Assembly: GCF_054482525.1 (NCBI RefSeq)
Contig: NZ_JBTHVG010000004.1
DNA: 64,000 bases
DNA from: a plasmid
Reading direction: 5' to 3' (one strand)
In this document: positions 24,464 through 50,740 of the stretch, piece by piece
Numbering within the stretch: position 1 is the first letter of the stretch
How the letters are laid out: each line of letters begins with the position of its first letter
The notes under the pieces: generated by a model
Database searches by the model: none
What the model saw: the letters and a program-made list of their open reading frames with translations, nothing else
Told to the model about the DNA's origin: nothing
Position numbers and translations under genes: made by a program

Positions 24464-25666
24464 TCAACGTGCGTTTGCCTGATTGATTGTTTTCTCAAGG
24501 CTACCGAGTTGTTTTTCATAATACTGGCGGGCAGTCAGAGCCAGTTGCTGGCCAGAGATAACATTACCCTGGCGGATCTGTTCTTTCAGATCGTTCAGCT
24601 GCCAGTTCATTTGCGCAGTGATTCTTACCAGTTCACGGAGCAGGTTATCCCCCTGCATTTCCTGTAAATCCACCAGGTATGCTGTGTTGGCGTAGCGCCG
24701 GCCAGCCTCAAAAGCTTCAAACTCACGGGTACTCATATATCCCCGTGCTTTTGCTTCTGGTGAAGCCACCTGGTCGAAGTAAGCGGCCGCTGAGTCTGAC
24801 TGCAGTGTTTCAGCCAGTGCTTTACGTGTGCTTTCATTAGGCGTGCTGTCAGCAATCAACGTCAGTTGGGGATTCGACGCAGAATCAATGATGCCGTTGT
24901 ATTCGTTCTGGAGTCCGACGTAGGTTCGCCCACTCTGGGTATTCACTTCTCCTTTACCCAGAGCACGACCGGCAGAGGGGCGGGAAGTGTTTTTCATGTA
25001 AGCCGTCGCTGCATCTATTTGCTTCTGATCCCATGTCAGTGCCGCAGGTGTGTCCGCTGTACCTGCGCCGTGGTAAATCGAGCGTACCTGACTGTCTCCA
25101 CCTGGTATTTCGCCCACAGAAGGACAAACGGCGGTTCCTCCAAAACGTGCATATTCTGCTTCTGTACAGTAACTGGCGTGTATGGCCGCGCCATCATAAG
25201 CTTCCCGCACGGGAGAGTTTGCTGCGCTGGCCAGACGGTCGCGGATGCTACGGTTGCTCACACCGCCACCTTTACTGAGTTTTGAGGCTGCGGATGCTGA
25301 GGCACTTTTGCTTTCTGTTGCAATCCCTGATGCGGATTCACTGCAGATGGAGTCTGGCACGGTGAAGCTTTTCCGTGCCTCCTCGAGGCGCTGAGTTTCA
25401 TTACTGAAAATCATCTGCTGACGTGTCGCCTGTCCGTTCTGGGCAATGACACTTGCCAGCTTTTCAGAGTTCTGATTGATAGCGGTACCCGTGGCTGTCT
25501 GGGTACTCAGTATGTCACTCAGCACACCTTTGATGGCCTCCATTCTGGGGACGACCTGCTGTTCAACGGGACGGCTGGCGACGACGGTGACTGAATAAGC
25601 ATGAGCCTGGTATGCCGTTCCATTCAGGATAGCTATAAGGGCTGCGAGTAATGTTTTTCTTTGCAT
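24464..25666 (-). CDS. traW: TraW (secreted/periplasmic T4BSS component)
   Basis: 400 aa with the signal peptide MQRKTLLAALIAILNGTAYQAHA. Order and length as in R64. Confidence 0.8.
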   Translation of the reverse strand: MQRKTLLAALIAILNGTAYQAHAYSVTVVASRPVEQQVVPRMEAIKGVLSDILSTQTATGTAINQNSEKLASVIAQNGQATRQQMIFSNETQRLEEARKSFTVPDSICSESASGIATESKSASASAASKLSKGGGVSNRSIRDRLASAANSPVREAYDGAAIHASYCTEAEYARFGGTAVCPSVGEIPGGDSQVRSIYHGAGTADTPAALTWDQKQIDAATAYMKNTSRPSAGRALGKGEVNTQSGRTYVGLQNEYNGIIDSASNPQLTLIADSTPNESTRKALAETLQSDSAAAYFDQVASPEAKARGYMSTREFEAFEAGRRYANTAYLVDLQEMQGDNLLRELVRITAQMNWQLNDLKEQIRQGNVISGQQLALTARQYYEKQLGSLEKTINQANAR

Positions 25667-26247
25667 TTTATTGTCTCCTGCTCGGGGTGGAGCACAAGGT
25701 CAGGAAGGCTGTCGTATTTTCTGTCTTCAGGTAGTGGGGCCAGTGGGAAACACTGATATCGCCTGGTGATATAACCTTTCCTGTTCCGGTTATCGATGAT
25801 GCTGAAAGAACGACGTCTGACGCGCCGTAAGGTGGAAGGGTCAGTATCCATTACAGGCCAGTCACCGGCACTCAGTGCCGGCGTTCCGGGAACGGATGGC
25901 CATAACCAGGTATCATCGGACATCAGCGAAGCCAGCGGTGAAGGGAGTATCCACTGGATGACATGCTGAACGTCGAATGGTGCTTCATCCGGGACAGAAA
26001 CCTGCCATATTGCCGTTGTTATCAGCTCATCTGTGCTGGACGGCAACAACAGCCGCATGCCTGTAACCTTTCCCTGTGTTCTGGCATCCGAGGCGTATAT
26101 CACTCTGGGATTGGGGGCCGGATGTAACCTGAAGACACGTGACGGCAGAGTGAATGAGAAACTGTCACCTTTTACCTCAAGTTTTTTAAGAAATACCTGC
26201 CCTCTGGCAGGTCTCCGGCAGCGTGGGGTGATATGAATTGTACACAT
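25633..26247 (-). CDS. traV: TraV
   Basis: 204 aa ORF between traU and traW. The start codon is uncertain. Confidence 0.7.
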   Translation of the reverse strand: MCTIHITPRCRRPARGQVFLKKLEVKGDSFSFTLPSRVFRLHPAPNPRVIYASDARTQGKVTGMRLLLPSSTDELITTAIWQVSVPDEAPFDVQHVIQWILPSPLASLMSDDTWLWPSVPGTPALSAGDWPVMDTDPSTLRRVRRRSFSIIDNRNRKGYITRRYQCFPLAPLPEDRKYDSLPDLVLHPEQETIKCKEKHYSQPL

Positions 26248-29200
26248 CAGAGATTGTATCCCTGTTTTCGGATGAGCTCCGAGGCCAGTTCTTCAATAAC
26301 ATTGTCACTGTTATGTTGGCCCGCCCGGTGCTCAATTAATGACGTTGCAGAACCTCTGGGGAAGTTTTCGGCCAGAATCTTACGTGCCCGAACTGAACCT
26401 AACTTATTTGTCAGTGTTTTACGCAGGGCACTGTCTTTTGGCGATGAGTTCAGCGCCCATAGCTCCAGTGGACCGACGGTAAATTTGAGTATTCTCGCAA
26501 GCGTGCCACTTTTTACCCTGAATACTCCCAGAACAGGAACACCACTACCATCTGGTGCCGGGCCTTCCGGCATTTTCAGGAAGCGTTTCAGCATAAATTC
26601 AGGCACGTTGAAGTTATCCCTCAGTACGGGGATATCTTCGGGTTTGTAGCGCAGTAACCAGAGAGTATTTGCTGACTTAAGAACGCTTTCCGGGTAGTCC
26701 CTCAGATACTGCGTACTCAGAACCGTGCGGATAGCAAACTTGCGTTGCTCACGCTCCTGGGTATCCAGATTTTCCCAGATGAAGTCAATGCCCCGGGCGT
26801 TATGCAGTTCATCATAAACTTTTGTCTTAACCTCCTGATCAAGTTGGTTAATACGTTTAAGAGCGATTTCATGGTATTCCCGTGGAAGCTGCTTTAACAC
26901 TTCATCCCTGTATTGTGGCAGGGTGAAGTCACCACCGGCGATCTGACCTGCAAGCAGGTACATGATGCCGGTTTTAAGCCTGCCTGCAGGCGTTTTGTCA
27001 CCGGCAACATTATTCAGATCGACAGCGATGACCCGGGTTTCCGGGTTGATCATAAACCGGGTATACCCGGATATCATGGGGTAGTCGTTATGTCCCTGCT
27101 CGAGAGCGCGGCGGATGTAGTCCAGCAGAAGTTCGTTTGAACCATCACGCTGAACAGTACCGAAAACATCCCTGAGACTGGTATGGCCCAGCATCGAGGA
27201 CACTTCGGGAAGCTGGGGCATTGCCTGATAATGTGCCCGCTGAGCCGCCATGATATACCCGGCATTGTGGAGCATATCCCGGACTTCGAACCAGGTTGAT
27301 CTGGCCCACCAGGCTGCATCATGTTTTTCATACAGTCCCGAGTCCTGCAGTGCTGAATCCACCAGTTCTTCCGTTGAGGCGCGATAAAGTCGCGGATTAT
27401 TTTCACCGTACTCTTTAAAAGCCAGCTCGATAAGCTGGTTGATAATTTGTCGGGTGTCTCCGGGGTTACAGGGTTGACCGGTACCGGTATCGACACAGAG
27501 AGCACACAGCACAGATGACATGAAATTCTTTTCCGGCGTAATAGGCTTTTTAGCGCCGTACATCACGTCAAAAAGGTTACGGGTGTATTCCGGATCATTG
27601 CTCAGAATAATACCGACAGCTTCGTCTTTTCTTTCCGGAGGAAGACTGTCGCGAATAAGCTGAACCAGTCCCTGAGCACTGTATCCCTTATCGATATAGG
27701 CAATGAAGGGCAGGTTTTTCTGAGCAGATGATATCTGTATTTCCGACAACGTATTAATCAGAACTGATTTACCCAGTCCCGGATCGCCTGGTGCCAGTTC
27801 TGTATGTTTATTTTGTTGGGATGACGCCAGACCAACCTCAAATGCGGAACCGTCTTCTGTATGTAACATCAGATTCCCTTTGCCTCGCCAGACAGAGCCT
27901 GCCCTGTTAAGCGGGAAAAGCGAGATGGCATGTGACAACGGGGGATACAGGGGAACCGGGCCGGAGCCTCCGGATGCCGCGAGAATGGTATTCACCCAGG
28001 CGCGTCGGGGATCGCCAAATGTTGTCGTGGTGCCACATACGCCCCAGCCTTCAATGGCCGATTTCAGAATGGCCTGGTTTCGTGTGCATATTTCACGTGT
28101 TTTTCCCCACGTGGAGGCCATGATGGTCATTATGCAGACAGGTTCTTTTTCATCCGTTGCAGCCAGGGTCATAACGGATTCATACATTGGACGAACGGCA
28201 GAAATGAAGCTGCTGTAAGTCAGAAGCGTTTTCTTCAGATTAAGAGCCTTCATCCCGCCGGGCATCAGATCCATTCTGATGCGCCAGGGGACTGCGCGGG
28301 GGACGGCACGGACCAGTTCGTTAAACGTCTGCAGATTTTGCGGAGGTAAAGTAATCGATACCATTCCGTGCCAGAGTCCGCCCGCCTGAACCAGGTTGCC
28401 CTGTGTGGTCACCTGAGTGTTGAATAACTGCAAATGCAATGAAGGAGCATGTAGTACGGATTCATCGTCAGTCCAGCGATATCCCGCTGGCTGGGCATCT
28501 TCAGGCAGGTGGGGTTGCCAGTTACGCGGTGTGCTGTGCCGTTCTGTCTGACGACGTATTTCACGCCCGACCTCGTGTATATCCAGTAGCCGGAGAATCA
28601 GGCCATCAGATGAATGTCTCAGTGCCTGTTCCACATTATCAAGAAAAGCTTCGTGGCGGATTTTCAGTGCAGATAAGGCCCACTGCCAGGGGGACTGGGC
28701 AAAGCGTGCTTTCGGTACCCGTTCAGCCAGTCTTCTGACAAGCTCATCATGGGCGGTGCGATCGCTGTTGCTGATAAGGTCGGGTCCACTCCAGATCGCC
28801 AGCCAGCAACGCTCCCGGACCAGCCATGGGGACAGTGTTGTGACTTTCTCATCGACCACATCCTGTAACTGGATACCTGTATTAGCCAGTGAGCGCTTTT
28901 GTGGGGCGACCATGTCTTCGATTTCTTCTTTCCCCATGTCAGGATCACGCTCAAAAACGAAGCTGATTTTATGACCGCTGTTTTTATATGCCGTATTCAG
29001 GCTGTCACTCATGCTGGTGATCAGCGATTCCAGTGAACCTGGGCCAGTCTGGTCGGATGCTTCATCCATTTCCCTGAAAGCACCGCTGACTTCAAAGACA
29101 GAGAGATATTCTCCACGCTTTGTGGCTGCAATATAGGGCGAATTCAGCCATGGGCGGCGTTCACGATCCTGTCTGTCCAGACCAATTACAGTACGTAAAT

Positions 29201-29291
29201 CGCAATATTCAACAAAACTGCTTGCGACAGAGAAACGGGATAGCGTGTTCAGACAGTCTTCGATAGTGAAGATTAAACGGTTTATGTTCAT
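26247..29291 (-). CDS. traU: TraU ATPase (DotO/IcmB-like)
   Basis: The Met at 29291 (MNINRLIFTIED) gives 1014 aa, the R64 length as I recall it. It has the Walker A motif GDPGLGKS. The track's start at 29384 is an extension. Confidence 0.85.
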   Translation of the reverse strand: MNINRLIFTIEDCLNTLSRFSVASSFVEYCDLRTVIGLDRQDRERRPWLNSPYIAATKRGEYLSVFEVSGAFREMDEASDQTGPGSLESLITSMSDSLNTAYKNSGHKISFVFERDPDMGKEEIEDMVAPQKRSLANTGIQLQDVVDEKVTTLSPWLVRERCWLAIWSGPDLISNSDRTAHDELVRRLAERVPKARFAQSPWQWALSALKIRHEAFLDNVEQALRHSSDGLILRLLDIHEVGREIRRQTERHSTPRNWQPHLPEDAQPAGYRWTDDESVLHAPSLHLQLFNTQVTTQGNLVQAGGLWHGMVSITLPPQNLQTFNELVRAVPRAVPWRIRMDLMPGGMKALNLKKTLLTYSSFISAVRPMYESVMTLAATDEKEPVCIMTIMASTWGKTREICTRNQAILKSAIEGWGVCGTTTTFGDPRRAWVNTILAASGGSGPVPLYPPLSHAISLFPLNRAGSVWRGKGNLMLHTEDGSAFEVGLASSQQNKHTELAPGDPGLGKSVLINTLSEIQISSAQKNLPFIAYIDKGYSAQGLVQLIRDSLPPERKDEAVGIILSNDPEYTRNLFDVMYGAKKPITPEKNFMSSVLCALCVDTGTGQPCNPGDTRQIINQLIELAFKEYGENNPRLYRASTEELVDSALQDSGLYEKHDAAWWARSTWFEVRDMLHNAGYIMAAQRAHYQAMPQLPEVSSMLGHTSLRDVFGTVQRDGSNELLLDYIRRALEQGHNDYPMISGYTRFMINPETRVIAVDLNNVAGDKTPAGRLKTGIMYLLAGQIAGGDFTLPQYRDEVLKQLPREYHEIALKRINQLDQEVKTKVYDELHNARGIDFIWENLDTQEREQRKFAIRTVLSTQYLRDYPESVLKSANTLWLLRYKPEDIPVLRDNFNVPEFMLKRFLKMPEGPAPDGSGVPVLGVFRVKSGTLARILKFTVGPLELWALNSSPKDSALRKTLTNKLGSVRARKILAENFPRGSATSLIEHRAGQHNSDNVIEELASELIRKQGYNL

Positions 29292-29380
29292 AGGTGAGGG
29301 AACTCCGGACTTACAGGAGGGAGGTTTGTGCAGTTTGATTTTTTTAATGCCACCCCGCGCTGGAGTGGCATGAAGAAAAA

Positions 29381-30181
29381 TCAATCAACGTATTCTTTTT
29401 TGATGAATGAATCTGGTGTCAGAATCAGGGCAATCCCGTTCATTTTTTCACGCAGGGGCGAACGACCGGAAGGTGGATAGCGACGAAAAACGTCAGCGAA
29501 ATCGGCCGGGCGGAAACTGCGGAATTTATCCTCAACCGCCAGTCTGTTTTGCATCAGTGCAGAGAGCGCTTCCCGTCCCCGCCGGACCCGGAACTTATCA
29601 TTACTGAAAACTTCCTGTAATGAACGGCGGTTAAGGGCCACGACTGTGGATGGATGAAGGTCGGGTAGCCACACCATAACGCCCTGTGCTGCGGCATAAC
29701 CATTCAGTGAATGCCAGGCGTGGCAGAAAGCACATAAGCTGTAAGGCGGGCCGTCTTCATGAAACAGTTCCTGCTCTTTCTCTGACAACGGCTCTGTACT
29801 GGTGATTTCAGCTTTCTGTACATGGCGGAGTGAAAGACGTCTGGCAGACAGACGGGCCTGCTCAAGCGCCCGTTCAGCGGCTTTTACTGCCGTGTTGTAC
29901 TTTTCCTTTTCGCCGGTTGCGACTGGTTCACCACGCCTGATTAACTTAACCAGATGTTCTGTGGCCTTATTAAGACGAACTCGTGTGTCACTGATTGTGT
30001 CGGTAAGCTGTCTGAGTGGCCATGAGTCATCCAGTCTGAAACGGTGCCTGACGTTTTGCCGGCAGCAGATACATCGACCGGGCGTTGTTAATTCCGGTTC
30101 CGGTAACAGTGGCTCCTGTGTATGAACCACATCAATTTCTGGAAAGGGATACAACCACAAGTTTTTAATGCTGTGTTGCAT
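29381..30181 (-). CDS. traT: TraT
   Basis: 266 aa. Order and length as in R64. Confidence 0.75.
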   Translation of the reverse strand: MQHSIKNLWLYPFPEIDVVHTQEPLLPEPELTTPGRCICCRQNVRHRFRLDDSWPLRQLTDTISDTRVRLNKATEHLVKLIRRGEPVATGEKEKYNTAVKAAERALEQARLSARRLSLRHVQKAEITSTEPLSEKEQELFHEDGPPYSLCAFCHAWHSLNGYAAAQGVMVWLPDLHPSTVVALNRRSLQEVFSNDKFRVRRGREALSALMQNRLAVEDKFRSFRPADFADVFRRYPPSGRSPLREKMNGIALILTPDSFIKKEYVD

Positions 30182-30353
30182 GAGCAGGCTCCGTACTGGT
30201 GTAACGTTTCACGGCTTCCAGAATGATGTTTGCGATTTCATCGGAACAGCATTCTGCAAAAATGAATTCCTGATCGTCCCGACTGTCGTGGGCAATCACA
30301 TTGCCGTTTTCTGTTCGTCGTAACGTTATGTGCTCCGGGCTCCAGGCAGACAT
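30165..30353 (-). CDS. traS: TraS
   Basis: 62 aa ORF that overlaps the traT start. Confidence 0.6.
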   Translation of the reverse strand: MSAWSPEHITLRRTENGNVIAHDSRDDQEFIFAECCSDEIANIILEAVKRYTSTEPAHATQH

Positions 30354-30416
30354 ATGTGCCTCCTTGTATTGCCGAACAGGAAGGGCACCGGATAAATGCC
30401 AGTGCCCTGGACAAGA

Positions 30417-30821
30417 TTAGCCAATGGAAATTGAGGAAATCCCCAACTGTTTCTGGCTGCGACTCATCATTTCAGGTCCGGCGACAAGTACCGCCCCAAT
30501 GACGATAGATACAATGCAACTAGCCAGTCCCATCCCCCCTTGTTTCCCAACTTTTTTCAGGCCAATCAGGCCCCCGAGAAACAGAATTACGCCGATGAAC
30601 TGCGCAATAGTCAGTGATGATGACTGTGCTGTTTTGGCACCTTGTTCGACATTGCGAACCATATCGGCAAGATCTCCATCGGCAAGAACGGCTTTGGGCA
30701 GCAACATCATGGGAATGAGCAGCAGGAACTTAGTCAGTTTGCTCCGGCATGACATTACAAACAGTTGTGCGTGGATAAATGCGGCGTACAGACGGGCCGC
30801 TACGACACGAATACGTGACAT
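30417..30821 (-). CDS. traR: TraR (membrane protein)
   Basis: 134 aa with hydrophobic segments. Operon position as in R64. Confidence 0.7.
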   Translation of the reverse strand: MSRIRVVAARLYAAFIHAQLFVMSCRSKLTKFLLLIPMMLLPKAVLADGDLADMVRNVEQGAKTAQSSSLTIAQFIGVILFLGGLIGLKKVGKQGGMGLASCIVSIVIGAVLVAGPEMMSRSQKQLGISSISIG

Positions 30822-30871
30822 AGTTTCTCCTTAAATGGATATATCAGTGGTTTATATGAAGGTGAAAAAAA

Positions 30872-31399
30872 TCAGAAGACGATTCCAATGCTTGCCAGCA
30901 GGGCATTGAGGACACGATCGATAAAGACCAGCAGGACGCCGGCAATAAATTTGACGTTTCCCTTACTGACGGATTCACTGGCACTCAGTGCGGTATGTCC
31001 ATCGAGTCCGGCCTTGCGCCAGATGGATATCCCGTTCATTACAAATCCAACACCGGCCAGCTTGGCCAGCGACAGAACTGCATTTGCTGCGCCAGCAGCA
31101 GCGCCAAACGTCTGAGGTTGTACATATGCAATCGGGCCAAATGAGTCAGCCCTGAATCCCATTTGTACGCCTCCGGCGTTAATCATTGCCGGGAGTGATA
31201 CGAGCATGCAGCTGGTTAACATCCCCGCAATAAATTTTCCGGGAGACATTTTTACCGGACCGGCTGAACGGGCGCGGGCAAACAGGGTAATCATGCTGAT
31301 CACCCCGATGAATTCTCCCCAGGTAAACAGGAAATCCATTCCGGCACTGAAAATACTGCTGGCAAAGTTCTCAATGGCGGTCAGGGCATCCATGTTCAT
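30872..31399 (-). CDS. traQ: TraQ (membrane protein)
   Basis: 175 aa polytopic protein. It abuts traP. Confidence 0.75.
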   Translation of the reverse strand: MNMDALTAIENFASSIFSAGMDFLFTWGEFIGVISMITLFARARSAGPVKMSPGKFIAGMLTSCMLVSLPAMINAGGVQMGFRADSFGPIAYVQPQTFGAAAGAANAVLSLAKLAGVGFVMNGISIWRKAGLDGHTALSASESVSKGNVKFIAGVLLVFIDRVLNALLASIGIVF

Positions 31400-32103
31400 C
31401 AGCGTAACGTCCCTGCACTGGTGATGATGGTCCGGGTAGTCGGATCAATCCGCTGGATCACCACATTGCCCAGCGTCTGACCTTCTCTGACAGCCCAGGT
31501 ACTACCCTGCCAGCGAATCCAGGCCATACCAGTTTCCATCGACATGATTTTCATTCCGTTAAGTACAGACGACGTTTTTTTCTTTGCTGGATGCGGTGTG
31601 GAAGAGGATTCAGTGACGCTTTTCTGTGTCATTATTCCGTTCAGGCGGCTCCGGATATCATCCAGCTGACGGCGTGTTTCCTGTGCGTATTCTTCATCCT
31701 TTTTTATAGCTTCGCCCAGCTTGTTAATGCTGTCGTGAAGCATATTCAGTGTTGCCTGAATTTTTTCATCGCGGTTATCCAGCTCTGTTTTTACATCCCG
31801 GGCAAGCTGGCTCATATCTTCTCCTGTCCGGACAGTCATAGTCTCAGTGGACTGAACGGAAGGTGATGATTCTTGTGTGGTTTGCCAGGTCTGTACGCCA
31901 GCATCCGCATCATTAAACGGAGGCATGCCTGTTTCCGATGGCGCTCTCAGGAACAGATACCATATGGCTGCGAGCAACACGATTGCACATAGCCCCCATG
32001 TTGCTACAGATATCCCCCAGACGGAACGTTTCCAGAAGGGGGCGGGTTTCTCTTCGGGTTCACCGAAGCTGCCGGTTTCATCTATTTCTGTTTCAGGTTT
32101 CAT
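31399..32103 (-). CDS. traP: TraP
   Basis: 234 aa with one transmembrane segment. Its start and stop codons overlap the neighbouring genes. Confidence 0.75.
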   Translation of the reverse strand: MKPETEIDETGSFGEPEEKPAPFWKRSVWGISVATWGLCAIVLLAAIWYLFLRAPSETGMPPFNDADAGVQTWQTTQESSPSVQSTETMTVRTGEDMSQLARDVKTELDNRDEKIQATLNMLHDSINKLGEAIKKDEEYAQETRRQLDDIRSRLNGIMTQKSVTESSSTPHPAKKKTSSVLNGMKIMSMETGMAWIRWQGSTWAVREGQTLGNVVIQRIDPTTRTIITSAGTLR

Positions 32104-33392
32104 TATGGTGTCTCCGGTTGTTCATCATACCGACGTTGCATCACAGCTTTTCTTTGCTCCATGGCTGTCTGCATTCGTGCCTGCGAGCGTTGTTCCGCCT
32201 GTGATGTACGATTAACTGAAGGGGAAATGCCACTGGAAAGGGAAGATGACCTGGCGTCGTTTGTCATTACCGGGTCAACAAACAGAATTGATACGACTTC
32301 ATGCTGATACACTTCTACCTGTTTATAGGGCTCACTTTCTGCCTGGCGGGTTAATATCTGACTTCCTCTTTCCGCCATACCACCGGCAATAACGCCCGCA
32401 ACAGCTTCACCACTGGGCATTCCCACGCGTCCGGTAACCGTGCCATAGTTACCCTGAATAACCTGCGTGTTGGCATCTTTATAAAGTGTGCCAATACTGC
32501 CCACACCTCCTAACACTGACGGCAGAATGATATGTTTAAACCAGCGTGTATTCACATTGCTGGCCACGGATGACATCAGGTTGTCTTCCCGTTGAGCATA
32601 TGCATTGACCTTAAGGTCCATGCCGTTCCAGCTCATCCGGTCGAAATGGATCTCCACGCCGTTACCCACCAGTTTGACTCCCGGACTGAACAGCGTTGCC
32701 CCTGCCCAGGGGCCAGCGGGAATGGTTGCGATAACCTTGGATGACGGGTTATCAGAATCCACTGCAGTATCAATATATGCCGGTATACGGGTCAGAGCAG
32801 GTATCAGTTGTATCCCTTTTTCTGCTACAGGCGTGGACAGGCTGGCATTCTGTAATGCGAATTGCTGCGTACCATTCTGCCCTGTTGTTTCTGCCGGAGA
32901 TTTATTCCACATAGTCGTTGCTATGGTTGGTGTACTACCGGCAGGATGCTGATCTTTTATTCTTACAATCAGCTTTTGCAGCCGCTCCATACGTTTTTCA
33001 CTGGCTGCTCGATCCTCCTGTGGTGTGCCGGAAGCCTGGCGATGAGCATAGTTTTCCGGTTTTGCTGCAGGCTGTTGTTGCTTTTCCGGAGTGTCCGGAA
33101 TATCAAGCCCCTGTGGAAGACTGGCAATGAACGTCTGATTATTGCGGGCTGCAGCTGCGGCCCCTCGTTCATTATCCGCTCTTAACAGTTCACGATAGTG
33201 AGGCGTTTCGGTAACGCTGCGCGTTCCGCCGCTTGCTGCACTGTTAATGTTCACGGCTGACTGCATATCGCTGTTACTCCCTGATAGTTTGGAAAACGCG
33301 ATATAGCCGCCGCCAAATAAGATGATGCTGCCCAGTCCAAGCAGGGCAGCCAGTTTCTTTCCGGATTTACCGGCATCCTGTTCAGCACTCAT
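32103..33392 (-). CDS. traO: TraO (DotG/IcmE, VirB10-like)
   Basis: 429 aa with an N-terminal transmembrane segment and a conserved C-terminal beta domain. Confidence 0.8.
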   Translation of the reverse strand: MSAEQDAGKSGKKLAALLGLGSIILFGGGYIAFSKLSGSNSDMQSAVNINSAASGGTRSVTETPHYRELLRADNERGAAAAARNNQTFIASLPQGLDIPDTPEKQQQPAAKPENYAHRQASGTPQEDRAASEKRMERLQKLIVRIKDQHPAGSTPTIATTMWNKSPAETTGQNGTQQFALQNASLSTPVAEKGIQLIPALTRIPAYIDTAVDSDNPSSKVIATIPAGPWAGATLFSPGVKLVGNGVEIHFDRMSWNGMDLKVNAYAQREDNLMSSVASNVNTRWFKHIILPSVLGGVGSIGTLYKDANTQVIQGNYGTVTGRVGMPSGEAVAGVIAGGMAERGSQILTRQAESEPYKQVEVYQHEVVSILFVDPVMTNDARSSSLSSGISPSVNRTSQAEQRSQARMQTAMEQRKAVMQRRYDEQPETP

Positions 33393-44897: not shown

Positions 44898-45722
44898 TTA
44901 CCAGGGTAATAAAGACGTATTAAATAAGCTAACAGGTAGTATTTGCCCTGTAATAAGGTTTCCGGCAAGGCCAGGTCTCAACGTAACGCGTCGCAAAGAC
45001 ATTGTTGTATTCTGCCTGGTTGTATATTCAGTTAACCATTTTCTTTTTTCATCGTTCAGAAGTGTTGGTGATAATGATAGTGCCGGATATATTACAGAGC
45101 CATTTATTTCTTTTTCCTGTCTCAATATTACCCCGCAATATTCTCTTTTCGTGTTTCCTGCGAAGGGGAAACTATGCCAGAAAATAACTTCAGTGTTGCT
45201 GCTATTATTAATAAGCATTCTGAAATTATCAGCAGTATCTGGCCATTCACCGGACAACGCTATCGGATAGTTTTCATGGCCATTCAGCCAGTCCGGATTG
45301 AGATTAAAACATTCAGCAAGATGTTCGAGAGCGTCAGCTGAAAGATAGTCTGCAAGTCTGGCCGGGTCCTGTATAACCGTGGAGCGGATATTCCATGGCG
45401 ACAGCAATGTTGCCAGTAATGGCGCATTTATATCATGCGACAGCATGATGTATTCAATTCTGCTTATTATGTTTCCTGTGGTGTTATCCGCAGGCATAAA
45501 CATATTATGAAGAGCATCCTCAAGCAGGATTCGGGTTAAATCAGCGGTGGATATGGCTAATTGTTCGCTCATTATCCCCAGAACTTCTCTTACCCCTTGT
45601 GGGTAACGGACCTGCAGAGGTGTCGGGTTTATCTGACGACCGTTGATGAGTTTTTCGCCGATTGCTTTTTTGTCCAGCGAGAGCATCATTCGGGCCGCAA
45701 TACCGGTCGTATTCAGTCTCAT
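44898..45722 (-). CDS. traE: TraE
   Basis: 274 aa ORF between traF and rci, as in R64. Function unknown. Confidence 0.65.
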   Translation of the reverse strand: MRLNTTGIAARMMLSLDKKAIGEKLINGRQINPTPLQVRYPQGVREVLGIMSEQLAISTADLTRILLEDALHNMFMPADNTTGNIISRIEYIMLSHDINAPLLATLLSPWNIRSTVIQDPARLADYLSADALEHLAECFNLNPDWLNGHENYPIALSGEWPDTADNFRMLINNSSNTEVIFWHSFPFAGNTKREYCGVILRQEKEINGSVIYPALSLSPTLLNDEKRKWLTEYTTRQNTTMSLRRVTLRPGLAGNLITGQILPVSLFNTSLLPW

Positions 45723-45872
45723 TGTTCCTCCGACTGAAAAAGTCTTTTCAGCTCATGTGGTTATTGTATCTTCGGTGTTTTTTCTGGTGAAACGAATAAT
45801 TTCGATCATGCAGATCGAATGTGTTTGGCGAGTTGTTGCAACTCGCCTTTCTGTATGTGTTTTGAATGATGT

Positions 45873-47027
45873 TTACAGCGGGGTGCTGCCCGGGTTCAGA
45901 GGGCAAATCATAATGTAGTCAGGGTCGTTAACAGGTAACGCTCCGGGAGATGGGACACGTTCGCCTTTCTGTGCTGCAATGGCCAGTGTACGCAACAAAA
46001 CCTCACTGGCGCGGTGAACTGCTTCCTCTTTCGTTGTGGCAGTGACGTGAAGGTTATCAAAATCACCGATCTCAATACGATGCGCTTTCTGCCCATTTTC
46101 TTCATCGATGGTCGTGATATGGGCAGGATACGGCACAAACCATGCTGCCACTTTTTGTGTCTGCCGCCGGCGGGCATCAAGCTTACTGACCAGTTGCCAT
46201 GCACGAAGATGAGTATACCGTTTCAGCATATTCATGGAACGATGTCCTGATATTGCAGCAATCTCCATTACATTCAGGCTACCCAGTTCGAAGAAGCGGC
46301 TTATTGCTTCATGCCGTAGATCGTGAAAATGCAGGTCCTCGATGCGAAGTCGTTGTGTGGCTATTCTCCAGGCATTTTTAAAGCCGGATGCGGTGTAATC
46401 AAAAACATTGCCGTGGAGATTAACGGGCATCATCTGAAGAAAGTTACGGGCACGTCTGGACAGAGGAACATCCCGTGAGTGACCGTTTTTGGTTTCAGGT
46501 AAATGAGCCACACCGTGGCGCAAATCAATGTGTTCCCAACGTAAGGCCAGTATTTCGCCCTGCCGCATGGCTGTTTCAAGGGCAAGATGGAAAATGACAT
46601 ACAACATCAGATTTTTTTCGCGGAAATAGCGAGAAAGGCGACGTTCTTCTGAAGACGTTAGCCGACGATCTCGTCCGGAGGATACTTTCGGCTTGCGAAC
46701 CAGTTCAACCGGGTTAGTACGACAGGTTCCCCATTCAACACGAGCAATATTGAACAGAGATGACAGAAGGGCGAGTTCAAGACGTACAGTATTACCTGTA
46801 ATGGCTTTACCCGTTCGGGGGTTGATTTCTGCTAAACGAACGTCTCTGTATGTAGCAATATCAACGGTTGTTATTTCGTCCATATTCCGAAGGGCAATGG
46901 GATATCGCTTGATAACATTGCTCCGGTAAAACTCCTGTTGATGCCCTTTCTTGTGAACAGAAACTGTTTTCAGGTACTTATCCAGTGCGCGTGACAGGGA
47001 CATTTTACGGATGCGTGGAGACGGCAT
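45873..47027 (-). CDS. rci: Rci, shufflon-specific tyrosine recombinase
   Basis: The Met at 47027 gives 384 aa. It has tyrosine-recombinase motifs ([11 protein letters not shown] and LKRYTHL) and lies adjacent to the sfx repeats. Confidence 0.9.
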
Positions 47028-47077
47028 GCTAACCTCAAAAGAGGAAAAAATAATGCCAACAATCATTCTCTGCAAGC

Positions 47078-47096
47078 GTGCCAATCCGGTACCTGG
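47078..47096 (+). repeat. sfx site
   Basis: gtgccaatccggtacctgg. Confidence 0.9.
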
Positions 47097-47378
47097 CGTA
47101 AAAGCAATTCTGGTAGTACGGTGATAACTGGTCGTATAGCAAATGGTCAGCAAATACCGCTGCCAACAGGATTTTCTGCCAGTCAGTGCTCATGGAGTGT
47201 GAGCAATGCAGAAAACCCTCAAGGTTGGAAGCCGAATTACTTTGCTGGATCAGTTGCAACTTATGATGCAAATCGAATTGTTAAATGTGGTTTTTATGAT
47301 GAATACAATTTCCATAAAGGGACATTTAGAGCTGATTTAACCGGAAAATGTAGTTATGTCGTCGCGTGTCAGAACTGA
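47097..47378 (+). other. Silent pilV C-terminal cassette
   Basis: In frame with sfx 47078 (..[25 protein letters not shown]...ACQN*). Confidence 0.75.
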
Positions 47379-47406
47379 GATTAAATTGCTGGCGCTGCTG
47401 GCCTAC

Positions 47407-47425
47407 GTGCCAATCCGGTACCTGG
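47407..47425 (+). repeat. sfx site
   Basis: gtgccaatccggtacctgg. Confidence 0.9.
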
Positions 47426-47671
47426 AGAAAGGTAGGATCTGGTGAGCTTCAAATTGCTACAGCACAGGCGACAGGTTGGCGCTTTCCTGGAGCAACAGCT
47501 ACCTGTCCAACTGGAAAACGTGTTACAGGTGGCGGCGGAATATGCACCTCACGAACTGGTTACATATGGCTTACCAGGTCATTCCCATCAGCCAATAACT
47601 CATGGTCGGCTGCGTGCGATACAACCGAAGATCAGAATGGTTCAATAACTGTATATGCCATTTGCCAATAA
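47426..47671 (+). other. Silent pilV C-terminal cassette
   Basis: In frame with sfx 47407 (..[20 protein letters not shown]...YAICQ*). Confidence 0.75.
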
Positions 47672-47672
47672 G

Positions 47673-47912
47673 CTATTTCAAGCAAGTAATCTTCATAAAG
47701 TAGGACGAATACTGTGTGTAGTTTTTGGCTTGCCAAGTCATCTCGCCGTTAGAGTCAGGCATGTCAATAGGAACGACTTCTGTTTCTGCCATTTCACGCC
47801 CGTCAATACGATAGGTGTTAATACACAGTTTAAACCTCCCTAAGACCTGTGTGTTTTTGGGATATAACGTAAATGTTTTTATATTCGTCCATATCGACGC
47901 TGATGATGATTT
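47673..47912 (-). other. Silent pilV C-terminal cassette (not in the ORF track as such)
   Basis: My translation of the minus strand from sfx 47913-47931 gives [20 protein letters not shown]...MKITCLK*. It is convergent with the previous cassette. Confidence 0.65.
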
Positions 47913-47931
47913 CCAGGTACCGGATTGGCAC
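47913..47931 (-). repeat. sfx site
   Basis: ccaggtaccggattggcac (reverse complement of the consensus). Confidence 0.9.
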
Positions 47932-47939
47932 TGGCCTAC

Positions 47940-47958
47940 GTGCCAATCCGGTACCTGG
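47940..47958 (+). repeat. sfx site
   Basis: gtgccaatccggtacctgg, 8 bp from the preceding inverted site. Confidence 0.9.
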
Positions 47959-48204
47959 GGCGCTCCTAAAACTCAATTCACAACGCAGACCTACAACATA
48001 GCTAAAAACACTCGTAATTTAAGGCTCGGGGTCCATGCATATTGCTCATGGACTTACCTGAATGGCTCACCCTTTGGTGGTTTTCAACAGGTATATTCCG
48101 ACCAAAACAACGTTTGGTATGTGAGTAATTATGCTTGGGGAAATTATGAGTCTGGTGGGACCATATCAGTCACATGCCTCAATCTTCCTGGTGCTGGAGT
48201 TTAA
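47959..48204 (+). other. Silent pilV C-terminal cassette
   Basis: In frame with sfx 47940 (..[19 protein letters not shown]...LPGAGV*). Confidence 0.75.
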
Positions 48205-48413
48205 TTAAAGGGGCAACAGTAGGCATCGACATGTTCCTCATCAACACCATCACCAATACCGTACATGCGTGTTCCAGTCATAATGTATCCAGTCGGACAT
48301 TGAATCGGCTTGTAATAGATCGAACCACCACTCTTACCGCCGATAAAGTGATTCATTGCTACGGATGATTTGTACCAATTACATGCTGAGTAATTAATTT
48401 TATTACCCCCTGA
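48201..48413 (-). other. Silent pilV C-terminal cassette
   Basis: In frame with sfx 48414 (..CQSGRWSGGNKINYSACNW...YCCPFN*). Confidence 0.75.
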
Positions 48414-48432
48414 CCACCGACCGGATTGGCAC
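48414..48432 (-). repeat. sfx site
   Basis: ccaccgaccggattggcac. Confidence 0.9.
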
Positions 48433-48440
48433 GTAGGCCA

Positions 48441-48459
48441 GTGCCAATCCGGTACGTGG
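48441..48459 (+). repeat. sfx site
   Basis: gtgccaatccggtacgtgg, 8 bp from the preceding inverted site. Confidence 0.9.
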
Positions 48460-48795
48460 AAGACTTCTGGTTCGCTCAATGGTTCTTACACAAACTTAGG
48501 TTCACATAGAGGTTCATTCTCAGGGCGGAATTCAGGGGGCAGTACATTGTTTATTTATGCATCTGGAGGTAATGGAGGATCTGCCGGAGGTGCATGTGCA
48601 AATACATCCCGACTGCAGGGATATGTTGGTGGGACGCTAATTAGCGTGAATGCCAGCAATAACCCTGCATATGGAAAAACAGCCTTTATCAGCTTTGCTG
48701 TACCTGCAGGTACTTCCTATCAGATAACATCCTATCCAACAGAAAATACATCATGTGGTGCCGGGGTATTTTCAGTATTTGGATATCAAACTTAA
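48460..48795 (+). other. Silent pilV C-terminal cassette
   Basis: In frame with sfx 48441 and ends ..SVFGYQT*. Confidence 0.7.
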
Positions 48796-50084
48796 TTGAG
48801 CGTTACACACGACGCAATACAACCTGTCTTATGCTCGTATTTGTACCATTTACGTGAACCTGCTGGGCTCTCAACTACCTGGCAGTAGTGGGCATCCTCT
48901 GCGTTGCCCATTCTGGCAATGGCACAGAAGTCGAATTGCCCCAGATAACCTGTGGTGGAAAGCTGAGTAACTTTGAGTTTTCCACCTATTGTCCTCCACG
49001 TACCGGATTGGCACGAAAGTATTGCCCCTGTATTATCGCGGCCTACAAGGCCGTTAGGCGAACATGATGCGCCAGCAACGGCAGTTCTTTCCAGTTGTAA
49101 GTATTCACCAGTATAAAGGCGACCATCAGCACGAACAGTACCGCCTTTCACCTGACCGCCGGTATAGATGCCCTTGTTGTTTACACTTCGAACCCATGAT
49201 CCGTCGGACATATAAAATCCGCCACCGTGAGTTTCATTGAGCCAGCCTTTGCTGTTACGAGTAATTAACCAACCATTATTACTTCTGATATCACCGCCAG
49301 CGGTGACATTTACGTCAAAGTTTCCGCTATTGCCTTTTACCTGACCGCTGAAAGTGCCATTTACACCATTCACATTGCCGCTGAAATTACCAGTCTGGGC
49401 ATTTACTGCCCCAATGTTATTCAGGTTATTTGATCCCATATCAATGGCCGTGTGCATTTTGTTTAAGTCAGGGCGACCATTGACCTGGAATCTGTAAAGA
49501 CGATCAGTGTCCTCTGCTGCACCACTAAGTTCATCTGTCGATAACAGTACGGCAATATGCCCGTTACCGCTTTTGGCACCATAATTACTTAAAGCTACTG
49601 ACCAGGAACGTAATGCACCTGTGGCTGTTTTGCCGTCCTGGATATATCCACCAAGACCAGTGGTAATATCCTTAGCCATCTGGATAAGTGCTTTCACTGG
49701 ATAAGGGGTGCCACCACTGGATACAACCATTGCCTGTAGTAATTCCGGGTTTTGGGTGTTTCGAACTACATATGCCTGTAACCGCTGCCCCTCGCTGTTT
49801 GTCTCAGTAAAGCCGCTGGACAAAAAGCCGGTATTTTTCAGCATGGTTGTCGTGATAACGGCAGGGGTTGTTGTGGTACTACTGGCCTGGAGAGTTGTGT
49901 AGTTTTTCCCTATATAAGAGCGGGCTGCACTGGCCCAGTTGCTGACAAGACGAGCTTCAGCCTGCCAACCTTTGGTTTTTAAATAGTCCTGCCATATGCC
50001 TGCACCCCAGGCAACTATGATCATAACAATCAATAAAGCCGCGCCAATTTCCAGCGATGCCCAGCCTCGGTCATATTTTTTCAT
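48792..50084 (-). CDS. pilV: PilV thin-pilus tip adhesin (prepilin-like), current shufflon configuration
   Basis: [20 protein letters not shown] is a type IV prepilin-like N-terminus. The constant region runs to sfx 48996-49014, followed by the C-terminal cassette ..[12 protein letters not shown]...CVTLN. Confidence 0.9.
48996..49014 (-). repeat. sfx site inside the expressed pilV
   Basis: ccacgtaccggattggcac. It encodes SCQSGTW of the current PilV. Confidence 0.9.
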
Positions 50085-50740
50085 CAGATTACCCATAGTG
50101 GTTGATAAAGATTATCCAGTAGCAAAAGGACATGGCCAAGACACAGCCATGGACCCAGTGGGCCTTCTTTATGTCCTTTTATGCACCATGTTGAATGCCA
50201 TAAGACAAATCCTCCTGCGCCCAGCAACACACTCCATATGGCGTTATATAGCCCTGACCATGCGGTAATACCTGCAATAAGCCACAGGTCTCCTGTGCCA
50301 ATATTAAGACGATGGCGGTTAACCAGTTTATGCAGACAGAATAAGACAATTGCGGCAGAGACAATTTCTGTTGCACGGAGCCACCATATATCAGTTGTGA
50401 TTTGTGATAATATTCCAGCGATTAAAAAACGCCTGGTGAATGTACCCGGTAAGAGGCCTGTTAGTGCATCCGTTACTGCCATTTGCAGCATGAACGAAAG
50501 AATAAGAACAGCATGAATACGGTAGATAAGTGGGGATGACGATAAAATAATTAATGCCACAGCTATACTATATAGCCATATTCCTGACAGAACTGCAGTG
50601 TGTGTCTTATACCAGAGATGTTCTGTATCAGATAAAAAATAACGAACTCTGAATAACAGAGTTCGTCCAATAATGGAAAATATGAACATCAATGGGAGGA
50701 TATAAACAGGGGAGAGACTTATGCCTACGATTGTCTGCAT
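50084..50740 (-). CDS. pilU: PilU prepilin peptidase
   Basis: 218 aa from the Met at 50740. Polytopic membrane protein. Order and length as in R64. Confidence 0.8.

Follow-up and report, generated by a model that had tools for sequence, protein, structure and literature searches.

A seven-site shufflon, almost certainly of the complete R64 type, reported in the PilVA' state in an IncI1 transfer region

What is the repeat-rich DNA that separates the recombinase gene rci from the pilV gene on the plasmid contig NZ_JBTHVG010000004.1 (assembly GCF_054482525.1), and which form of the PilV protein does it encode? The stretch of this contig that was analysed, hereafter the window, is 64 kb long. We are highly confident that the element at 47078-49014, between rci and pilV, is a complete shufflon of the R64 type (IncI1). 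It consists of four segments with seven in-frame C-terminal cassettes of PilV and is bounded by seven sfx sites, with rci on one side and the constant region of pilV on the other. The map reads rci-[D'>][B'> <B][C> <C'][A> <A']-pilV, which makes PilVA' the adhesin encoded here. Judged by its sequence, the shufflon is apparently functional, and PilVA' is the one state of it that is reported. Shufflons have been known since 1986-87, and that of R64 was reportedly described by Komano et al. in 1987. The type is ordinary and is routinely annotated, including by NCBI's pipeline. All the defining features of an R64-type shufflon that can be tested on sequence were found here.

An sfx site is 31 bp long and comprises a non-conserved left arm of 12 bp, the 7-bp crossover core GTGCCAA and a conserved right arm of 12 bp, with a 3-bp variable site at right-arm positions 7-9 (PMC9045228, PMC11852207, PMC4176322). 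Using a window-wide pattern scan that allowed two mismatches, we detected seven matches to GTGCCAATCCGGTNNNTGG, all of them perfect, where dinucleotide shuffles led us to expect 0.01 by chance. The repeats start at 47078+, 47407+, 47913-, 47940+, 48414-, 48441+ and 48996-: four lie on the plus strand and three on the minus strand, exactly as counted in a first-pass annotation made from the letters alone. Positions 45600-50700 were in addition read directly, and each first-pass coordinate that was checked proved right. A repeat finder independently gave the same families, together with two palindromic blocks of 42 nt that correspond to back-to-back pairs of sfx sites. The 8-bp spacers within these pairs are tggcctac (47932-47939) and gtaggcca (48433-48440). 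Each is the reverse complement of the other, as the earlier observation had it, and R64 has the same pair. The core GTGCCAA followed by the 12-bp right arm TCCGGTNNNTGG occurs at multiple sites in both orientations, and cores and right arms are intact at all seven:

47066..47096, plus strand: sfx1, the rci-proximal site; left arm ttctctgcaagc, the same as that of sfx109 (PMC4176322), core GTGCCAA, right arm TCCGGTACCTGG
47395..47425, plus strand: sfx2; left arm ctgctggcctac, which is the tail of segment D and the same as the left arm of sfx102 (PMC4176322), right arm TCCGGTACCTGG
47913..47943, minus strand: sfx3; left arm gcacgtaggcca, right arm TCCGGTACCTGG; identical to sfx106 (PMC4176322)
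47928..47958, plus strand: sfx4; left arm gcactggcctac, right arm TCCGGTACCTGG; back-to-back with sfx3 across tggcctac (47932-47939)
48414..48444, minus strand: sfx5; left arm gcactggcctac, right arm TCCGGTCGGTGG; the sole site of the CGG type
48429..48459, plus strand: sfx6; left arm gcacgtaggcca, right arm TCCGGTACGTGG; back-to-back with sfx5 across gtaggcca (48433-48440)
48996..49026, minus strand: sfx7, at the pilV junction; left arm ggcaatactttc from the pilV constant region, core GTGCCAA, right arm TCCGGTACGTGG; identical to sfx101 (PMC4176322)

The site sfx101 has been reported as the most efficient one (PMC11850598). The right arm of every site in the window is at the same time the start of a cassette (SGTW or SGRW) and travels with it, and three types of right-arm triplet are present. 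The left arms are of several kinds: the constant region of pilV (ggcaatactttc), the rci-proximal flank (ttctctgcaagc), the tail of segment D (ctgctggcctac), and an 8-bp spacer with four bases of the neighbouring core. One element of the first-pass annotation needs correction at this point, namely its mention of "7-bp variable arms" (acctgg, acgtgg, ccaccg). The motifs listed are 6-mers, and the variability consists of the 3 bp at right-arm positions 7-9. The 7-bp element of the site is the invariant crossover core GTGCCAA, and the arm that truly varies is the 12-bp left arm (PMC9045228, PMC11852207, PMC4176322).

The reading frame of pilV passes through 48996-49014 as TGC CAA TCC GGT ACG TGG (CQSGTW), and the frames of all cassettes were therefore translated from the second base of each repeat, that is, as TGC CAA TCC GGT NNN TGG (CQSGTW) after the initial G. 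This recovered seven open cassettes, with lengths of 99, 87, 85, 87, 76, 117 and 73 aa in repeat order:

47079..47378, plus strand: D' cassette, 99 aa, ending in SYVVACQN; the only cassette of segment D, silent in this orientation; 99/99 residues identical to R64; SHU7_ECOLX
47408..47671, plus strand: B' cassette, 87 aa, ending in TVYAICQ; silent; 87/87 to R64; SHU4_ECOLX
47673..47930, minus strand: B cassette, 85 aa, ending in FMKITCLK; silent; 85/85 to R64; letter assigned by elimination and by the segment shared with B'
47941..48204, plus strand: C cassette, 87 aa, ending in CLNLPGAGV; silent; 85/87 to R64; letter assigned by elimination; "shufflon protein C" in the GenBank record CP034252
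48201..48431, minus strand: C' cassette, 76 aa, ending in DAYCCPFN; silent; 76/76 to R64; SHU6_ECOLX
48442..48795, plus strand: A cassette, 117 aa, ending in VFSVFGYQT; silent; 117/117 to R64; SHU1_ECOLX
48792..49013, minus strand: A' cassette, 73 aa, ending in CIASCVTLN; fused in frame to the pilV constant region; 72/73 to R64; SHU2_ECOLX

Identity of the cassettes to those of R64 (NC_005014) ranges from 85/87 to 117/117 aa (97-100%). Segments A, B and C hold two convergent cassettes each and segment D holds one, D', which gives seven forms of PilV. Translation places the stop codons of segment B at 47669-47671 (plus strand) and 47673-47675 (minus strand), abutting with one base between them. 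Those of segment C (48202-48204 and 48201-48203) and of segment A (48793-48795 and 48792-48794), again plus strand before minus strand, overlap in TTAA. These are the three convergent pairs that had been recognised in the first pass by stops at 47671/47673, 48204/48201 and 48795/48792. Segment D (47097-47406) carries its single cassette, with a stop at 47376-47378, between two plus-strand repeats. The tail of this segment (47379-47406) ends in tggcctac, the same 8-mer as in the back-to-back spacers, and before it stands a degenerate stretch, gattaaattgctggcgctgc, where a minus-strand sfx site would sit. From its sequence, the tail resembles the remnant of a partner site and cassette that have been lost, and such a loss would account for D having one cassette only. 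The IncI2 plasmid TP114 retains a D cassette (PMC9045228).

A comparison of the cassettes with the R64 segments A-D, proposed in the first pass, supplied the letters that could not be given there. We used an exact look-up of the R64 constant region joined to each R64 cassette against clusters named by Swiss-Prot, whose names fix five letters: SHU1 is A, SHU2 is A', SHU4 is B', SHU6 is C' and SHU7 is D'. The remaining two cassettes share segments with B' and C' and are therefore B (ending in KITCLK, 47913-) and C (ending in PGAGV, 47940+). In the published table of pESBL cassettes, B' equals B plus two codons (PMC4288162), and the same size relation is seen here (87 vs 85 aa). An NCBIfam scan of the seven isolated cassettes matched no family and yielded no letters. 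The product labels in GenBank were rejected as a source of letters, being mutually inconsistent and contradicted by Swiss-Prot SHU4. The cassette ending in YAICQ is named "shufflon protein B" in CP034252 (1727-2544), where Swiss-Prot SHU4 makes it B'; the A'-fused gene is named "pilVA" in LC567088 (3993-5297), and certain D' open reading frames (ORFs) in public records are named "Shufflon protein C".

Mechanical ORF calling has its own difficulty with these frames. The first in-frame start codon of the B cassette (47930-47673, minus strand) is a Met that lies only 39 codons ahead of the stop, and for lack of an earlier start the cassette is omitted from the ORF list, which was made at 40 aa. 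Over the same DNA the caller lists the plus-strand ORFs 47655-47843 and 47815-48204, so the first-pass annotation was right that a minus-strand cassette had been missed and a plus-strand ORF reported in its stead.

Which form of PilV the sequence encodes can be read at the junction with the constant region:

48792..50084, minus strand: pilV as sequenced, encoding PilVA'; 430 aa from MKKYDRG, with the prepilin motif G/WASLE

Pfam Shufflon_N matches the protein at 4.2e-186 over residues 33-361. The constant region ends in AILS, followed by CQSGTW, which is encoded by sfx7, and then by the A' cassette: the frame of pilV continues across the repeat at 48996-49014 and into the cassette that ends in CIASCVTLN. 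The start of pilV was set by the RefSeq convention, with a 1-nt overlap with pilU. The exact PilV protein is found on at least 1,000 contigs, and the exact 434-aa pilV ORF of the window is labelled "Shufflon protein A'" in public records. The earlier statement that the expressed variant can be read off the sequence stands as far as the fusion to the CIASCVTLN cassette is concerned, which is PilVA'. Shufflon populations are mixtures of which an assembly reports one member (PMC5430464), so the words "currently expressed" have to be taken as the isoform that the assembler reported. Directly upstream of pilV lie the genes of a PilU-type A24 prepilin peptidase and of PilS, the major pilin. On this I-complex conjugative plasmid the shufflon lies where the type IVb thin-pilus (pil) operon has its 3' end, and the genes are ordered as in R64.

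On the other side of the shufflon lies the gene of the recombinase:

45873..47027, minus strand: rci, shufflon-specific tyrosine recombinase; 384 aa, stop codon included in the coordinates; Pfam Phage_integrase at 6e-24

The Pfam match (PF00589) spans residues 122-275 of Rci and is followed by an extension of ~110 aa, as in a tyrosine recombinase with an extra C-terminal domain. Over its full length the protein is identical to R64 Rci at 383/384 residues; the sole difference is at residue 75 (A in the window, P in R64). It is identical to the Rci of pEK204 (WP_001139955). The gene of that enzyme has been cloned, and its shuffling of sfx cassettes was demonstrated in E. coli (PMC4176322); the enzyme also serves as the reference Rci in PMC11852207. 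The mechanical ORF call for rci is 426 aa long and starts from TTG at 47153 (45873-47153, minus strand), crossing sfx1 into the D' cassette on the opposite strand. This call is an over-extension: the true start is the ATG at 47027, which gives 384 aa as in R64 and RefSeq. With an intact rci adjacent and the Shufflon_N match of pilV, the first-pass description of the locus as a complete seven-site shufflon holds, and its type is that of R64.

The shufflon of R64 (NC_005014/AP005147) resembles that of the window in having seven sfx sites with the same 7-bp core and seven cassettes spread over four segments. Both have the same two pairs of back-to-back sites and the same 8-bp spacers, and in both the shufflon stands at the end of the pilI-pilV thin-pilus operon, flanked by rci and by the pilV constant region. 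The deposited R64 order, rci-[B> <B'][C'> <C][D'>][A'> <A]-pilV, yields PilVA; that of the window is different and yields PilVA'. At the sequence level, the right-arm triplet of D' is ACC in the window and ACT in R64, a synonymous difference that leaves three right-arm types in the window as against four in R64. We considered this difference as a product of recombination with the triplet lying in the crossover region and rejected it: the core is GTGCCAA, and the triplet belongs to the right arm, which moves with the cassette. The ACC/ACT difference is a simple synonymous substitution and the sole difference in sequence between the sites of the window and those of R64. Residue 7 of the A' cassette is R in the window and G in R64, and the C cassette differs at 2 aa. 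It is conceivable, if rather unlikely, that these allelic differences (D' ACC, A' G7R and the two residues of C) could measurably alter, relative to R64, which inversions are favoured or which receptors are bound in this lineage.

By analogy with R64, Rci would recombine any two oppositely oriented 31-bp sfx sites of the window. Only inverted sites are recombined by Rci, and deletion between direct sites is suppressed by the asymmetry of the sites and by the C-terminal domain of the enzyme (PMC11852207, PMC9045228, PMC4176322). The constant region of pilV ends in a fixed left arm and core, and the right arm TCCGGTNNNTGG moves along with the cassette. Inversions of single or multiple segments would bring one of the seven cassettes (A, A', B, B', C, C' or D') into frame behind residue 357 of PilV, which has 430 residues. 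A swap of cassettes would be expected to change the tip adhesin of the type IVb thin pilus and thereby the recipient lipopolysaccharide (LPS) bound in liquid mating. In R64, the variants PilVA, B', C and C' have been found to set the LPS specificity of recipients in liquid mating (PMC5430464, PMC9045228). Where crossover takes place, the restriction to inversion and the LPS specificity are points taken from the R64 literature, and they presumably hold for the window as well.

The sites, the frames, the identities of the cassettes and the intact recombinase are shown from the window's own sequence, as are the states that can be reached from it. We simulated all legal inversions at the DNA level, starting from the window state (47040-49060). 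With both orientations of the two spacers included, 1,152 DNA states proved reachable, which amount to 288 different orders of the cassettes. A four-segment shufflon with a one-ended D has 288 legal orders, as compared with 384 from 2^n x n!, a formula unsuited to a one-ended segment such as D (PMC5430464). The order of R64 is three legal inversions away from that of the window. The cassettes D', B', C and A are each one inversion from fusion to pilV, with A reaching expression through sfx6 x sfx7, and B and C' are two inversions from it. In all 1,152 states the sites flanking D have the same orientation, so that D never inverts alone but only with neighbouring DNA, in agreement with what the first pass had claimed for segment 47097-47406.

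Damaged shufflons are present in public records. In some records of IncI-gamma/K1 plasmids the C' cassette is frameshifted to 23 aa (CP034252, 2253-2271), and the same record is missing D; in NZ_MW881232 (2303-3691) there are three sfx sites only, and D' is truncated. The damage to the IncI-gamma/K1 shufflons could reflect either genuine decay or a fault of assembly.

Misassembly caused by shufflons is documented (PMC5430464), and the loss of cassettes or frameshifts in CP034252 and NZ_MW881232 may be artefacts. By the same token, the order in the window might be a chimaera, put together from the reads of a mixed population across the 19-bp repeats and corresponding to no real molecule. The order is, however, among the 288 legal states, with each cassette present exactly once and all junctions well formed. 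The identical order occurs in independent complete plasmids, and pESBL has also been described with D adjoining rci (PMC4288162). We consider it very unlikely that the reported order is an artefact of this kind.

If the order is that of a real molecule, is it still being rearranged? A single configuration is visible in the window, and several independent records match the window order as one collinear stretch. Both observations would fit a shufflon that has lost the ability to rearrange, for example because rci is unexpressed or the A75 allele is inactive, so that PilVA' is fixed and the other six cassettes are silent relics. Reduced or damaged shufflons in public records are in line with such a fate: besides CP034252 and NZ_MW881232, ColIb-P9 lacks D, and in a pESI-like plasmid rci and pilV are about 0.9 kb apart. 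Yet the Rci of the window is identical to the experimentally active enzyme of pEK204, the cores and right arms of the seven sites are all intact, and the seven cassettes are open and 97-100% identical to those of R64, which is unexpected for decaying relics. Plasmids that are 99% identical to the window have other orders. The loss of rearrangement is, in our judgement, very improbable.

The near-identical plasmids (98.7-99.7%), for instance LC567088 and the record L006, hold the same cassettes in other legal orders, and all seven fused forms of PilV were seen, each on hundreds to >1,000 contigs. Together with the active recombinase allele, the intact sites and the open cassettes, these comparisons favour active shuffling in this particular plasmid. 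No feature of the sequence speaks against a complete, apparently functional shufflon of the R64 type. The points that weigh against this reading are limits of a different sort: one consensus sequence cannot reveal inversions in this strain, the reported order may be the assembler's pick from a mixed population (PMC5430464), and the receptor specificity of the A' form was not found stated in accessible papers.

Comparison with other named shufflons places the window next to R64. The plasmid pEK204 (NC_013120) shares its Rci with the window, but there the IS66-family element ISEc23 is inserted between rci and the D' cassette (24645-27061), a position within the shufflon region. In pESBL, segment D adjoins rci as in the window (PMC4288162); its published state is PilVA, unlike that of the window. 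The A, B and C segments and the sfx sites of ColIb-P9 (NC_002122; 26155-27762) are the same as those of the window, but segment D is absent and there are six sfx sites, where the window has the full four-segment set. This content of ColIb-P9 agrees with the three-segment shufflon of the literature. The IncI2 plasmids R721 and TP114 share with the window the mechanism, the core, the right-arm consensus and the cassette families A, A', B', C, C' and D' (PMC9045228). IncI2 Rci is, however, only ~76% identical to that of the window, and the IncI2 right-arm triplets GTG, ATC and TCG differ from those found here. Unlike the window, R721 has B' and D' in one segment, and among the eight cassettes of TP114 is a D, which neither R64 nor the window possesses.

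The rest of the window is an IncI1 transfer region (nikB, trbABC, traY-traE, pilL-pilV) with 97-100% identity to IncI1 plasmids. The tra and pil parts reach 100%. For window positions 1-24000 (nikB-trbABC-traY/excA), the best plasmid relatives are only ~97.4% identical and match in 5-7 pieces, which suggests a mosaic backbone or indels in this part; the records that match it hold additional insertions of IS679 or a group II intron. The pESI-like megaplasmid of S. Infantis NZ_CP016411 (317 kb, typed as IncFIB) is 100% identical to the window over 24001-46000 and has the same Rci. In that record (28873-32254), rci and pilV are only ~0.9 kb apart, one ORF is annotated in the interval, and the PilV is 430 aa long, the length of PilVA'; most of the shufflon is absent from the record. 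An assignment of the window to the pESI-like Salmonella megaplasmids on the strength of this match was rejected, since the shufflon of that record is reduced to ~0.9 kb.

How widespread is this locus? The 4.4 kb around the shufflon match 1,885 plasmid records at least in part, 712 of them at >=99% identity, and nearly all of the matches at >=99% are conjugative MPF_I plasmids from Escherichia, Salmonella and Shigella. Among complete E. coli genomes, 1,012/5,426 have an at least partial match to the region. The shufflon has long been known, and about a fifth of the complete E. coli genomes match at least in part, which leaves little discovery value in the locus as such. Its value lies in annotation. 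Six silent C-terminal cassettes are missed or mis-extended by ORF callers, the public labels of the cassettes are inconsistent, and any one assembly shows the order of segments as no more than a single snapshot of a mixture. With the lettered map, the PilV state of this plasmid can be given correctly, as A'.

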